A stretch of 64,000 bases of DNA. Origin: a phage. Location: the sequence record PZ179882.1; one strand, 5' to 3'. Numbering within the stretch: the stretch's first letter is position 1; each line of letters opens with the position of its first letter. The notes under the pieces are model-generated. The model was not told where the DNA came from and did no database searches. It saw only the letters and a program-made list of their open reading frames with translations. This document shows positions 1-2,301 of this stretch, piece by piece. A program made the translations under genes and the position numbers.

Positions 1-795
1 CGACATATCTGGTTTAGAGATGATAGCGATGCAGAAAAGGCTGTTATCTGGGCTACAGATGAGGGTATTTTACATATTCGCAATAATCATGGGGGTTCAT
101 TTAGTCATCACTTCCAGGGTGCAATGATTAAAGCGGGAGAGCGTGTTCCATATAATGGTGAATACGCTCTTATCCGTGGTGATATTTCAGGTGGTGCATG
201 GGTAGACTGGCGAGAGCGTCCGGCTGGATTGTTGGTAGACTGTCAGGACTCACGAAATCAAGCATATAACATTTGGAAAGCTACTCATTGGGGCGAACAG
301 CACCTTGCGGCGATGGGTGTTCATGCTGACGGTGGTAATCCTCGTGTTGTATTGCATGTGGGTGGGAATGATTATGCATTTGCATTTAACGGTGATTTTA
401 CTGCTGGTGCTGCTGTATATTGTAACGACGTTTATATTCGTTCTGACCGTCGTCTGAAAATTAATGTTGAAGACTACGAAGAGAATGCGGTGGATAAGGT
501 AAATAAACTCAAAGTTAAAACCTATGATAAAGTTAAATCTCTTTCTGACCGCGAAGTTATCGGCCATGAGATTGGTATTATCGCACAGGATTTGCAAGAA
601 GTATTACCGGAAGCTGTTAGCACTTCTAGTGTCGGATCTCAGGATAACCCAGAAGAAATTTTAACAATTTCAAACTCTGCTGTGAACGCGCTTTTAATTA
701 AGGCCATTCAGGAAATGAGCGAAGAAATTAAAGAATTGAAAACGCCTCTCTTTACTAAAATTGCTCGCAAAATTAGTAAATATTTTAAATTCTAA
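1..795 (+). CDS. 37: Long tail fibre distal subunit gp37, C-terminal part (5' end outside window)
   Basis: Frame 1 is open from nt 1 to stop at 795 (track ORF 124..795 is an internal Met). Position immediately upstream of gene 38 and t. Contains SDRRLK motif (Ser codon 442-444) typical of autoproteolytic intramolecular-chaperone C-termini of fibre proteins. Confidence 0.7.
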   Translation, partial: RHIWFRDDSDAEKAVIWATDEGILHIRNNHGGSFSHHFQGAMIKAGERVPYNGEYALIRGDISGGAWVDWRERPAGLLVDCQDSRNQAYNIWKATHWGEQHLAAMGVHADGGNPRVVLHVGGNDYAFAFNGDFTAGAAVYCNDVYIRSDRRLKINVEDYEENAVDKVNKLKVKTYDKVKSLSDREVIGHEIGIIAQDLQEVLPEAVSTSSVGSQDNPEEILTISNSAVNALLIKAIQEMSEEIKELKTPLFTKIARKISKYFKF

Positions 796-831
796 CAACA
801 AGGGGGAAATGCCCCCTTTGGAGTATAAATT

Positions 832-1614
832 ATGGCAGTAGTTGGAGTTCCTGGCTGGATTGGAAGTTCAGCCGTAAATGAAACGGGCCAGCGCTGGATG
901 AGTCAAGCGGCTGGTCAATTAAGATTAGGTGTTCCTTGCTGGATGAGTCAATTTGCAGGTCGCTCAAGAGAAATTATTCATACACTTGGAGCAGATCATA
1001 ACTTCAATGGTCAATGGTTCCGAGATAGGTGTTTTGAGGCAGGTAGTACACCTATAGTGTTTAATATCACTGGAGATTTAGTATCATATTCTAAAGATGT
1101 TCCTTTATTCTTCATGTACGGAGATACACCGAATGAATATGTTCAACTGAATATACATGGTGTAACGATGTATGGCCGTGGCGGGAATGGCGGTAGCAAT
1201 AGTCCTGGCTCAGCTGGGGGTCATTGTATTCAAAATGATATTGGTGGGAGACTAAGAATTAATAATGGCGGAGCTATTGCTGGCGGTGGCGGTGGCGGTG
1301 GCGGCGGATATTATTCTCCTTTTTCACAAATGAGATTGACCTTTGGCGGTGGCGGCGGTCGTCCGTTTGGCGCTCCGGGCGGATCTATTGATATGCAATC
1401 AGGAGCAACTGCTGGTACTATTTCTGCGCCTGGCGCAGGGTCTGTGAACGGTATCTACAACGGCGGGTCTGGTGGTGAAGTTGGCTCCGCAGGAGGTAGA
1501 TGTAATATTCGTGGTCAAGGATATGAATACGATGGCGGAGCTGCTGGTTATGCCGTCATAGGGTCTACACCGACATGGCAAAACGTTGGAGCAATATATG
1601 GTCCAAGAGTATAA
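832..1614 (+). CDS. 38: T2-type receptor-recognising adhesin gp38 with glycine-rich motifs
   Basis: 260 aa. N-terminus [37 protein letters not shown] matches remembered conserved gp37-binding domain of T2/K3-type gp38. Poly-Gly islands flank variable segments. ATG at 832 with GGAG Shine-Dalgarno. Confidence 0.8.
1282..1308 (+). repeat. (GGN)9 codon repeat encoding poly-Gly in gp38
   Basis: ggcggtggcggtggcggtggcggcgga; a second shorter GGN run at about 1341-1357. Confidence 0.8.
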
Positions 1615-1644: not shown

Positions 1645-2301
1645 ATGGCAGCACCTAGAATATCATTTTCGCCCTCTGATATTCTGTTTGGTGTTCTAGA
1701 TCGCTTGTTCAAAGATAATGCTACCGGGGAAGTTCTTGCTTCCAGGGTAGCTGTCGTAATTCTTTTGTTTATAATGGCGATTGTTTGGTATAGGGGAGAT
1801 AGTTTCTTTGAGTACTATAAGCAATCAAAGTATGAAACATACAGTGAAATTATTGAAAAGGAAAGAAATGCACGCTTTGAATCTGTCGCCCTGGAACAAC
1901 TCCAGATAGTTCATATATCATCTGAGGCAGACTTTAGTGCGGTGTATTCTTTCCGCCCTAAAAACTTAAACTATTTTGTTGATATTATAGCATATGAAGG
2001 AAAATTACCTTCAACAATAAGTGAAAAAACACTTGGAGGATATCCTGTTGATAAAACTATGGATGAATATGCAGTTCATTTAAATGGACGTCATTATTAT
2101 TCCAACTCAAAATTTGCTTTTTTACCAACTAAAAAGCCTACTCCCGAAATAAACTACATGTACAGTTGTCCATATTTCAATTTGGATAATATCTATGCTG
2201 GAACAATAACCATGTACTGGTATAGAAATGATCATATAAGTAATGACCGCCTTGAATCAATATGTTCTCAGGCGGCCAGAATATTAGGAAGGGCTAAATA
2301 A
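1645..2301 (+). CDS. t: Holin T (lysis inhibition-sensitive holin)
   Basis: 218 aa, one N-proximal TM segment and large C-terminal periplasmic domain; matches remembered T4 holin length and sequence; SD AAGGAGG upstream. Confidence 0.9.
   Translation: MAAPRISFSPSDILFGVLDRLFKDNATGEVLASRVAVVILLFIMAIVWYRGDSFFEYYKQSKYETYSEIIEKERNARFESVALEQLQIVHISSEADFSAVYSFRPKNLNYFVDIIAYEGKLPSTISEKTLGGYPVDKTMDEYAVHLNGRHYYSNSKFAFLPTKKPTPEINYMYSCPYFNLDNIYAGTITMYWYRNDHISNDRLESICSQAARILGRAK

Follow-up and report, generated by a model that had tools for sequence, protein, structure and literature searches.

A T6-type gp38 adhesin in a Tequatrovirus and the probable structural constraint on its (GGN)9 tract

The gp38 adhesins of phages S16 (PDB 6F45) and PP01 (receptor-binding domain, PDB 9V85) share a three-domain architecture and a polyglycine-II (PGII) sandwich (PMC6851490, PMC12892980). 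S16 gp38 has three conserved tryptophan prongs (PMC6851490). The central PGII helix of its sandwich, helix 3, is a run of eight glycines in which the main-chain hydrogen-bond network is saturated (PMC6851490). Both adhesins bind OmpC. T6-like adhesins recognise Tsx, as documented for T6, RB5 and RB14 (PMC3157838). Similarly, Bas35 requires tsx, as complementation confirmed (PMC8594841), CM8 was assigned to Tsx by RB-TnSeq, and JK38 also uses Tsx (bioRxiv 10.64898/2026.04.02.716166). A single substitution can be enough to switch porins; for example, Q206L takes RB68 from OmpF to OmpW (bioRxiv 2026.04.02.716166).

The DNA analysed here, referred to as the window, is a 64,000 nt stretch from a phage (sequence record PZ179882.1). 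An open reading frame on the plus strand at 832-1614 starts with ATG and encodes 260 amino acids. [quoted passage not shown] The overall explanation favoured here, that of a T6-type gp38 adhesin with a structurally frozen nine-glycine helix and possible rearrangements between its glycine tracts, is held with good confidence. The gene and its surroundings are as follows.

1..795, plus strand: 3' end of gene 37 (distal long-tail-fibre subunit), including the C-terminal intramolecular chaperone; PHROG 1699 and Pfam Peptidase_S74 matches
427..462, plus strand: predicted gp37 autocleavage site DVYIR^SDRRLKI; motif match, with cleavage inferred
800..818, plus strand: putative 7-bp GC-rich hairpin AAGGGGG-AAATG-CCCCCTT in the spacer between genes 37 and 38; read from the sequence
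832..1614, plus strand: gene 38, receptor-recognising adhesin of the T6 subtype; Pfam, PHROG and PDB matches, AF2 model, Foldseek
1645..2301, plus strand: holin t, the canonical 3' neighbour of gene 38; Pfam Phage_holin_T, 2.1e-116

Gene 38 lies directly after the S74-chaperone gene 37 and before holin t, in the order 37-38-t-asiA; relatives have the same 37-38-t order. The start of gene 37 is beyond the window edge, and the fragment matches PHROG 1699 (“long tail fiber protein distal subunit”; 2.5e-91) and Pfam Peptidase_S74 (1.9e-15). In fPS phages, a cleavage site DVYIR^SDGRLKI has been predicted by alignment to that of S16 (PMC7917993), and the window motif matches it. DVYIR (nt 427-441) is predicted to be the end of the mature gp37 tip and would provide the docking surface for gp38. 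The spacer hairpin sits directly 5' of the ribosome-binding site of gene 38, a GGAG Shine-Dalgarno sequence at 820-823 ahead of the ATG. A terminator scan chose the same stem, on the minus strand.

The protein matches Pfam GP38 (PF05268; 2e-71, 240.7 bits against a cut-off of 25), Pfam Gp38_N (PF21721; 1.2e-20, residues 1-42, 73.7 bits against a cut-off of 25) and PHROG 2056 (5.5e-113), as well as the sequences of both solved structures (9V85, 1.3e-79; 6F45, 4.8e-50). An AF2 model (pLDDT 90.1) is matched by Foldseek to 9V85 (E 9e-27, TM 0.87) and 6F45_D (E 7e-23); the predicted fold is a beta-helix with a PGII sandwich. Because the protein fits the adhesin family models and structures, a T4-type gp38, which is an assembly chaperone, was rejected. 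A sequence-only reading of this DNA had called the gene an adhesin-type gp38 with a conserved N-terminal fibre-binding domain and C-terminal glycine-rich motifs between hypervariable segments, and all of this is upheld by the Pfam matches, the two structures and the segment map below. The same reading had also called it “T2-type”, which is correct in the broad sense of an adhesin as opposed to the T4 chaperone type but not by subtype. By its N-terminal domain (45/46 residues identical to T6 versus 30/46 to T2) and its loops, the gene is of the T6 subtype. Public databases already contain this exact sequence; P0001, at 100% identity, is the representative of a 155-member cluster. Good descriptions exist of the family, its fold and its modular logic. 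The segments discussed below are these.

832..969, plus strand: N-terminal attachment domain and linker, residues 1-46, with Trp9, Trp22 and Trp37; Pfam Gp38_N
1174..1194, plus strand: glycine-rich motif (GRM) 1, GRGGNGG, residues 115-121, boundary approximate; invariant G115, R116, G117, G118 and G120, segment table
1282..1308, plus strand: GRM2, (GGN)9, Gly151-159, predicted central PGII helix; codons, alignment to S16, AF2
1309..1344, plus strand: hypervariable segment (HVS) 2, residues 160-171, distal receptor loop, predicted beta-hairpin at 159-172; segment table, AF2
1345..1371, plus strand: GRM3, (GGN)5 at 1345-1359 followed by RPFG, residues 172-180; invariant residues, run length
1372..1461, plus strand: HVS3, residues 181-210; segment table
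1462..1497, plus strand: GRM4, residues 211-222; segment table
1498..1533, plus strand: HVS4, residues 223-234; segment table
1534..1611, plus strand: GRM5 and conserved C-terminal strands, residues 235-260; conservation, segment table

Five GRMs alternate with four HVSs, and the invariant glycines cluster in the GRMs. All three tryptophans of the attachment domain are present; across 62 homologues, Trp9 is invariant, and Trp22 and Trp37 are at least 90% conserved. In GRM3, G173-176, P178 and G180 are invariant, and the glycine run is five residues long in almost all homologues. HVS2, which includes Q166 (nt 1327-1329), is the equivalent of loop-B of PP01 gp38 (loop-B is defined in PMC12892980). 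By analogy with the solved S16 and PP01 adhesins, the C-terminal S74 chaperone would be cleaved from the gp37 trimer at DVYIR^SDRRLKI, and the gp38 N-terminal domain would then dock on the exposed gp37 tip via Trp9, Trp22 and Trp37. The remainder of gp38 would form a beta-helix bearing a three-layered PGII sandwich, with the hypervariable loops protruding from the distal end to touch an outer-membrane beta-barrel.

How does this gp38 compare with its relatives? The closest is that of ECO07P4, with 99.1% nucleotide identity. The RB3/RB5 and Bas35 proteins have the same length as that of the window, and T6 gp38 is one residue longer; GRM2 and GRM3 are identical in all of them, as is HVS2 except in T6 (11/12). 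The window protein differs from this set by substitutions at A193 and A201 (HVS3), S213 (GRM4) and Tyr231 (HVS4). Tyr231 (nt 1522-1524) stands in place of the serine of T6, RB5 and Bas35 and is common to ECO07P4 and the HP3 lineage; it sets the window gp38 apart from every experimentally Tsx-typed relative compared. T2 gp38 belongs to the same family and has the same GRM/HVS layout but differs in its N-terminal subtype, in a run of seven glycines followed by AA, and in its unrelated loops. S16 and PP01 gp38 share the architecture and sandwich but have other loops, with 43% (S16) and 66% (PP01) identity over the aligned part.

Which receptor does this adhesin recognise? The variable segments were compared with those of T6, RB3/5, Bas35, T2 and M1, with M1 (OmpA type) and T2 standing in for K3 and Ox2. 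The loops match the set of the Tsx-dependent phages T6, RB5 and Bas35. Identities to RB3/5 are 29/29 in HVS1, 12/12 in HVS2, 29/30 in HVS3 and 11/12 in HVS4. HVS2 is identical to that of Bas35 at 12/12 positions and to that of T6 at 11/12, and the corresponding values for M1 and T2 are 2/15 and 0/12; HVS3 matches T6 at 26/30 positions and T2 at 8/32. Overall, the protein is 92% identical to T6 gp38 and falls in the same 90% cluster as the proteins of RB3/RB5 and WilhelmHis/Bas35. The primary receptor in E. coli is, on this comparison, most probably Tsx, and involvement of OmpA or LPS is possible.

It is unlikely, but deserves weighing, that the adhesin in effect uses OmpA and/or the LPS core instead of Tsx, owing to the HP3-like HVS4 with Tyr231. 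The HP3 lineage also has QGYEYD, only three residues of its C-terminal domain differ from the window, and HP3 is the nearest phage with Tyr231 for which there are any host data. HP3-resistant ST131 mutants are LPS-truncated or ompA mutants, not tsx mutants, and those that became resistant again to HP3.1 all map to ompA (PMC8092219). However, that study did not look at tsx (PMC8092219), and LPS defects also disturb porin display. PST, which has a T6-type adhesin, requires both Tsx and OmpA (PMC3157838), and in Yersinia the inner-core heptoses of LPS are needed by fPS-65, from the same 90% cluster (PMC7917993). Against this, every K-12-based assignment for the loop set (T6, RB5, RB14, Bas35, CM8 and JK38) is Tsx, and Tsx is the preferred assignment here.

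The second glycine tract, (GGN)5, was absent from the sequence-only reading. Comparison of the two tracts reveals an exact direct repeat, such that the variable cassette is flanked by short conserved DNA motifs.

1293..1307, plus strand: exact 15-bp direct repeat TGGCGGTGGCGGCGG, copy 1; sequence comparison of tracts
1344..1358, plus strand: exact 15-bp direct repeat TGGCGGTGGCGGCGG, copy 2, 51 bp downstream; sequence comparison of tracts

If the tracts mispaired by slippage or exchanged unequally, a cassette of HVS2 plus five glycines would be duplicated or lost. To judge from the records compared, this event has happened in nature at least twice, as a duplication. ZN18 and PYps47T, phages of Yersinia pseudotuberculosis whose gene 38 is of the same T6 type and has 97% (ZN18) and 92-93% (PYps47T) nucleotide identity to that of the window, carry tandem duplications of the intervening loop of 51 bp and 54 bp. 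Their gp38 proteins are 277 and 278 amino acids long, with HVS2 and Gly5/Gly6 in tandem; the window has one copy and keeps the 15-bp repeat. The duplicated copies are identical and the junctions lie in different, genome-specific microhomologies; by these junctions and their different backbones, the two duplications are independent. Gene 38 of the window retains an intact substrate for a 51-bp duplication.

Other natural junctions also fall within the motifs. A deletion (P0023) and a chimera (P0034) break inside the tract, and the P0023 junction is compatible with the 15-bp microhomology. In a mosaic locus (L030), the HVS2-GRM3 cassette is 92-94% identical versus 51-63% for the N-terminal two-thirds. 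The reciprocal deletions are seen only in read-derived singletons. The earlier claim that the tract is a site of recombination is therefore borne out in part, by the two natural duplications with junctions in tract microhomology and by mosaic boundaries at the tract, but among 14 selected recombinants of RB5 and RB32, none had its crossover in the GRM1-GRM5 interval (PMC3157838). One exchange between CM8 and EV240 spanned HVS2 onwards (bioRxiv 10.64898/2026.04.02.716166). The usual route of host-range change in the T6 subtype would be point substitution in HVS2-4 or exchange of the whole C-terminal cassette.

The paired tracts could be a selected device, in which duplication of HVS2 extends the distal loop and fits a Tsx-type adhesin to hosts that lack Tsx, notably Y. 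pseudotuberculosis. Both independent duplications occur in phages isolated on Y. pseudotuberculosis, which has no Tsx homologue (PMC3157838), and HVS2 residues are among the determinants of PST for growth on Yersinia (PMC3157838). The place count of the loop over 179 phage records is accounted for by ZN18 and PYps47T alone. The duplication is present in 2/7 distinct Yersinia phages versus 0/~140 others (Fisher p ~0.002, with an estimated denominator). There is also a precedent in gp37 of T4, where short “His-box” motifs likewise serve as end points for tandem duplications of receptor segments that widen host range (Tetart 1996, as related in PMC3157838 and PMC6957217). In those accounts, however, the T4 duplications concern another protein and fold, were selected in the laboratory and have a demonstrated host-range effect, whereas the gp38 duplications are known here from sequence alone. 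Other observations weaken the case for selection: the duplication is missing from five of the seven Yersinia phages that carry the adhesin, and PYps47T lyses 52/128 Y. pseudotuberculosis strains versus 78-87/128 for its duplication-free siblings PYps14T, 15T and 32T (PMC8762354). In the AF2 model of PYps47T, the first copy (residues 153-170) has a pLDDT below 50, and the model therefore gives the extra loop no definite structure. The same pattern would arise, with no adaptive part for the duplication, if a Tsx-binding loop were under relaxed constraint in a host without Tsx. A selected device for Tsx-less hosts is doubtful; equally, it would be rather surprising if the 14-15-bp microhomology of GRM2 and GRM3 were a recurrent, selectable route to HVS2 duplication, in gp38 what the gp37 duplications are in T4. 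The link between loop duplication and Yersinia is the sole mildly new point to emerge from this locus.

What, then, is the role of the longer tract? Nine consecutive GGN codons are present at 1282-1308, as the sequence-only reading had stated. They read GGC GGT GGC GGT GGC GGT GGC GGC GGA, in frame, as codons 151-159, and encode Gly151-159. The tract is not a pure triplet repeat but (GGCGGT)3 followed by GGC GGC GGA; Tandem Repeats Finder reports an array with a period of 6 and 4.0 copies at 1281-1304. It is the only (GGN)9 match in the 64-kb window and has no match in any of 100 dinucleotide-preserving shuffles; therefore, it is not due to chance. This non-randomness is fully explained by polyglycine coding. 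The tract aligns to S16 gp38 151-GGGGGGGG-158, “helix 3”, and residues 151-160 have a pLDDT of 97 in the AF2 model. Gly151-159 is thus predicted, by homology and the model, to be the central PGII helix of the sandwich. Such a helix would require glycine at every residue and a length that fits the lattice; the DNA repeat would therefore be a by-product of coding nine glycines. Selection would fix the tract at nine codons and leave third positions to drift at about the background synonymous rate.

Comparative data are consistent with this reading. First, the tract has nine codons in all 15 T6-type loci at the DNA level despite at least eight synonymous spellings, and the glycine run is nine in 61/61 protein clusters of the 9+5 class. 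Second, among the best 60 of 179 phage records with this loop type, gene 38 spans exactly 783 bp in 57, and (GGN)9 length is unaltered in all three of the others. Third, no deletions of GRM2, GRM3 or HVS2 were recovered in T6 when 268 phages were screened (PMC3157838). Fourth, third-position diversity is 0.29 in the tract versus 0.18-0.23 elsewhere, not below background as a homogeneous repeat would have it. Raised mutability of the tract was likewise rejected, since the difference is not significant (permutation p 0.15). The refuting outcome named in the sequence-only reading, host-range mutants that map elsewhere, is borne out in part: the characterised changes within the subtype are loop substitutions. 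For example, HP3.1 differs from HP3 by CAA to CGA at codon 166 (Q166R; PMC8092219), and the PST host-range changes lie in HVS2 and HVS3 (PRI/I) (PMC3157838; placed by the segment table compiled here).

Some apparent length variation at this site does not stand up. An HP3 frameshift in the tract (P0128), first taken for slippage, was rejected as an assembly artefact: the record, circular and marked UNVERIFIED, has its origin inside the tract at gene nt 473, and there are four surplus bases at the join. The length of the HP3.2 gene (772 versus 783 bp) was rejected as a tract change because the 11 bp are missing from gene nt 150-160. Five candidate HVS2-deletion variants (P0020, P0023, P0027, P0111 and P0120) and the tract contractions (P0054 and P0112) are all singletons from read-derived assemblies and may be neither real nor viable. 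A scan of GTDB genome contigs for relatives yielded none that could be confirmed.

The sequence-only reading had proposed that the tract is a hotspot for in-frame expansion or contraction and so a source of host-range variants, that is, a simple-sequence contingency locus in which slippage adds or removes glycine codons and length variants change receptor choice. That the tract is a real period-6, four-copy repeat, that singleton metagenome-derived proteins have shorter runs in nine-glycine families (six glycines in P0054, four in P0112), and that D5505 is one codon short in the neighbouring (GGN)5 tract would fit this idea, which is nevertheless very improbable and largely refuted by the comparative data, with tract length invariant in the isolated phages read, repeat number deviating among close relatives in only two read-derived singletons, the central PGII helix buried (PMC6851490), GRM2 deletions of T6 unrecoverable, known host-range changes in loops, and the sole apparent tract frameshift an artefact. 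Contractions such as those of P0054 and P0112 may occur and be purged, but they are not separable from assembly errors.

What does a structurally frozen helix mean for this family? The locus itself has little weight for discovery. First, a host-range gene may contain a triplet repeat that looks perfect and yet is no mutational switch; in this case, the repeat probably encodes a frozen helix, and the realistic repeat-driven events would be 51-54-bp cassette duplications or deletions between the two tracts. Second, the tract is a documented assembly trap, since the HP3 record breaks there, and draft-genome indels at the site deserve distrust. Third, a probable Tsx receptor can be assigned from sequence, with the caveat of Tyr231 and HP3, which is useful for the choice of phages for cocktails. 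Fourth, if the selective value doubted above were real, HVS2 duplication would help T6-type (Tsx) adhesins to colonise hosts that lack Tsx, such as Y. pseudotuberculosis.

The gene at 832–1614 is a well-known one, and the sequence-only reading identified it correctly as gene 38, encoding gp38, the long-tail-fibre tip adhesin. The protein matches Pfam GP38 over the full-length profile (2e-71), Pfam Gp38_N (1.2e-20) and PHROG 2056, “tail fiber protein; host specificity” (5.5e-113). The whole window is Tequatrovirus; several phages of Escherichia, Yersinia and Shigella share 95–96% identity with it across 25 kb. Its first 2.4 kb contains the following features:

Upstream of 832, + strand: gene 37 (3′ end), whose product is the distal long-tail-fibre subunit and carries a Peptidase_S74 intramolecular chaperone
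36 nt between gene 37 and gene 38: spacer in which a GC hairpin precedes the GGAG ribosome-binding site
832–1614, + strand: gene 38 ORF, 260 aa, with Pfam and PHROG matches
1645–2301, + strand: holin t ORF, downstream of gene 38

The 7-bp GC-rich hairpin (800–818, AAGGGGG AAATG CCCCCTT) follows the stop codon of gene 37 and precedes the ribosome-binding site of gene 38; it might act in transcript stability or in translational coupling.

Gp38 has five glycine-rich motifs (GRM1–GRM5) with hypervariable segments (HVS1–HVS4) between them. GRM2 is the (GGN)9 tract at 1282–1308, GGC GGT GGC GGT GGC GGT GGC GGC GGA, read in frame as Gly151–159. Both ORF and tract were confirmed exactly, by in-frame reading, by Tandem Repeats Finder (a period-6 array of four copies) and by dinucleotide-preserving shuffles of the window, from every one of which (GGN)9 was absent. 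A second tract, overlooked previously, opens GRM3 at 1345–1359 (GGC GGT GGC GGC GGT). The two tracts have in common an exact 15-bp direct repeat, TGGCGGTGGCGGCGG, at 1293–1307 and 1344–1358, 51 bp apart. GGC accounts for 8/14 tract codons versus 13% of Gly codons in the window's other long ORFs, where GGT (50%) and GGA (31%) are used; glycine tracts of homologues consist almost exclusively of GGC and GGT. One speculative reason for the bias is avoidance of Shine-Dalgarno-like GGAGG and G-runs.

What does the tract encode? Solved structures matched by sequence are the PP01 gp38 RBD (9V85, 1.3e-79) and S16 gp38 (6F45, 4.8e-50). An AlphaFold2 model of the window gp38 (62 homologues, mean pLDDT 90.1) superposes on 9V85 (E 9e-27, TM 0.87) and 6F45_D (E 7e-23), the model's structure search giving zero significant matches beyond these two. 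In S16 gp38, “helix 3; 151-GGGGGGGG-158” is the long helix at the centre, and hydrogen bonds to its neighbours saturate its main-chain groups (PMC6851490). Because Gly151–159 falls on this stretch in the hmmer alignment, and residues 151–160 are modelled with a pLDDT of 97, (GGN)9 appears to reflect simply what it encodes, a structural element that is buried. By homology, this element would tolerate no side chains, and its length would be tied to lattice height. [quoted passage not shown]

The tract had been proposed as a hotspot for in-frame expansion and contraction, a proposal at odds with the agreement in repeat number among close relatives. First, all 15 T6-type loci readable at the DNA level have nine codons, in at least eight synonymous spellings (for example, GGC GGC GGC GGT..., GGA GGT GGC GGC GGT... 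and GGC GGC GGT GGC GGC GGT...). Second, among 134 homologous proteins, the first run is nine glycines in 61/61 clusters of the 9+5 class, whereas loop families further away have 8, 7 or 6, with a single value per family; the second run is five nearly everywhere. Third, 57 of the 60 best phage records have the exact 783-bp span, the exceptions among these 60 being ZN18 (834 bp), PYps47T (837 bp) and D5505 (780 bp). Fourth, T6 deleted for GRM2, GRM3 or HVS2 was unrecovered among 268 screened recombinants (PMC3157838). Third-position diversity is 0.29 in the tract versus 0.18–0.23 at other four-fold sites, which is not significant (permutation p 0.15). The tract is neither homogenised nor hypermutable. 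D5505 (locus L018, MK327929.1), with four rather than five Gly codons in the GRM3 tract (GGC GGT GGT GGG) and an unchanged first tract, is the sole isolated phage seen with altered glycine-tract length.

Within otherwise nine-glycine families, shorter first runs occur only in P0054 (6 Gly) and P0112 (4 Gly), each a single sequence from a read-derived assembly. The RefSeq protein of HP3 shows an apparent frameshift within the tract, which was considered as slippage evidence and rejected as a record artefact. The HP3 GenBank record (KY608967.1; loci L041/L042) is flagged UNVERIFIED; its circular origin is at gene-38 nt 473, equivalent to window nt ~1304 and inside the (GGN)9 tract, and 4 surplus bases at the join yield a spurious 187-aa “gp38” (YP_010278715.1). 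Evidently, assemblies tend to break at this G+C-rich tract, which lies in a genome of 35% G+C, and the two singletons deserve all the more distrust.

A second proposal, that the tract is a recombination hotspot, fared better: glycine tracts act as rearrangement end points. The gp38 of the Yersinia phage ZN18 (277 aa) has a tandem duplication of a 17-residue segment (51-bp insert, copies identical), and its junction, TTT GGC GGT GGC GGC GGG TAT, places the crossover within the shared GGCGGTGGCGGCGG. The Yersinia phage PYps47T has a 54-bp duplication with its junction in its own 14-bp microhomology, GGCGGCGGTGGCGG; its backbone differs (92–93% identity), as do its tract spellings. The two duplications are alike in kind but arose independently. 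A junction-spanning query for the HVS2 loop matched 185 places in 179 phage records, and two ZN18 records (three places each) and PYps47T account for all six extra places. In locus L030, the HVS2–GRM3 cassette is 92–94% identical to the window and the N-terminal two-thirds 51–63%, which points to the tract as a mosaic boundary. Published crosses give a mixed picture: 0/14 selected RB5 x RB32/33 recombinants had a crossover between GRM1 and GRM5 (PMC3157838), which counts against the proposal, and one engineered CM8 x EV240 exchange replaced solely the part from HVS2 onwards (bioRxiv 10.64898/2026.04.02.716166).

Reciprocal losses of HVS2 are found in five read-derived proteins (P0020, P0023, P0027, P0111 and P0120). 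In view of the failure to recover such deletions in T6, these proteins are probably artefacts or defective. The P0023 junction is the outcome expected from 15-bp misalignment in a tract spelled as in loci L020 or L023, and its gene neighbourhood is normal (g36-g37-g38-t). The gene 37 product on the P0023 contig (L040 533–1966, Logan SRR30543803) is 477 aa versus ~1,000 aa in relatives, a hint that this tail-fibre locus may be defective or rearranged. P0034 is a chimeric ORF in which gp38 is fused to a chaperone domain like that of gp37, with a breakpoint at the equivalent of window nt 1301, inside the tract; it may be a genuine recombinant or a product of chimeric assembly. P0034 (303 aa; L039 5001–5912, GCA_031535085.1 contig ABMKHH010000064.1) comprises gp38 residues 1–156, ~55 nt of novel sequence and an S74 domain 89% identical to window 388–732. 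Its downstream genes include a T5-like distal-tail-protein domain and no holin or asiA.

Is the HVS2 duplication adaptive for Yersinia hosts? Both carriers were isolated on Y. pseudotuberculosis, and duplication is seen in 2 of the 7 distinct Yersinia phages with this loop (ZN18, PYps47T, PYps14T, 15T, 32T, fPS-65 and PST) versus 0/~140 others (Fisher p ~0.002, with an estimated denominator). Y. pseudotuberculosis lacks a Tsx homologue, and HVS2 is among the loops changed in PST (PMC3157838). However, PYps47T lyses 52/128 Y. pseudotuberculosis strains and its insertion-free siblings 78–87/128 (PMC8762354), and in the PYps47T AlphaFold2 model the first copy (residues 153–170) is unstructured (pLDDT <50) and the second forms the native hairpin. 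Relaxed constraint on a Tsx-binding loop accounts for the pattern equally well, and adaptation is an improbable explanation.

The window gp38 had been called T2-type, which holds for the broad adhesin type as opposed to the T4 chaperone type. For the subtype, segment-by-segment scoring in an alignment with T6, RB3/5, Bas35, fPS-65, PST, M1 and T2 gives T6 instead. All four hypervariable segments belong to the T6/RB5 set, with identities to RB3/5 of 29/29 (HVS1), 12/12 (HVS2), 29/30 (HVS3) and 11/12 (HVS4). In contrast, T2 has nothing in common with the window in HVS2 (0/12), and M1 (OmpA type) is the same through the tract's last glycine and then diverges completely (HVS2 2/15). T6 gp38 is 92% identical overall, and the closest gene 38 in the phage collection is that of ECO07P4 (99.1% nucleotide identity). 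A 155-member cluster that includes the adhesins of RB3/RB5-RB10, WilhelmHis (Bas35), fPS-65, L14 and HP3.1 has as its representative a protein (P0001) with 100% identity to the window gp38. P0001 (PJZ22119.1) is labelled “Bacillus cereus” in NCBI and lies on a 171.5-kb contig, presumably T4-like phage contamination of that assembly. Compared with HP3.1, the window is 97–100% identical from HVS4 to the stop and merely 72–84% in HVS3 and GRM4, which suggests a recombination boundary near GRM4.

Known host-range point mutants of this subtype largely map outside the tract, in HVS2 and HVS3. For example, PST has PRI in HVS2 where T6 has PQM, and I in HVS3 where T6 has G; these substitutions, confirmed in our alignment, permit growth on Y. 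pseudotuberculosis (PMC3157838). HP3.1, evolved in a bioreactor against LPS-truncated resisters, is two SNPs from HP3; the records show that codon 166 of gene 38 has changed from CAA to CGA. This codon lies in HVS2 and corresponds to the PST arginine, and Q166 would be the Gln9 of the HP3.1 paper. In RB51/RB68, from another loop family, a single Q206L in HVS3 switches OmpF/OmpW (bioRxiv 10.64898/2026.04.02.716166). The laboratory-evolved HP3.2 (L038, OP978391.1) has a frame-shifting 11-bp deletion at gene-38 nt 150–160 (locus 450–460), either real or a sequencing error; its record annotates a shortened CDS with a downstream start.

Phages with the loop set of the window gp38 rely on Tsx in K-12, as in T6, RB5 and RB14 (PMC3157838), in Bas35, with complementation (PMC8594841), and in CM8 and JK38, by RB-TnSeq (bioRxiv 10.64898/2026.04.02.716166). 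Hence, Tsx is the probable receptor of the window gp38, with the caveat that HVS4 has Tyr231 where Tsx-typed phages have Ser. Tyr231 (1522–1524), which replaces the Ser of T6, RB5 and Bas35, is common to ECO07P4 and the HP3 lineage, and its loop is the equivalent of loop-E, the main specificity loop in PP01. In ST131, the lesions of HP3 resisters are in LPS and ompA and not in tsx (PMC8092219), PST requires OmpA in addition to Tsx (PMC3157838), and fPS-65 in Yersinia requires inner-core heptoses (PMC7917993).

Earlier publications already cover the protein, its family and its fold, as well as the GRM/HVS model and the idea that GRMs serve as sites of recombination (PMC3157838, PMC6851490, PMC12032242). 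What is new, and mildly so, is only that the HVS2 duplication arose through microhomology and recurred independently in Yersinia phages. The mechanistic speculation of the sequence-only reading was half right: (GGN)9 is a length-frozen structural helix rather than a slippage switch.
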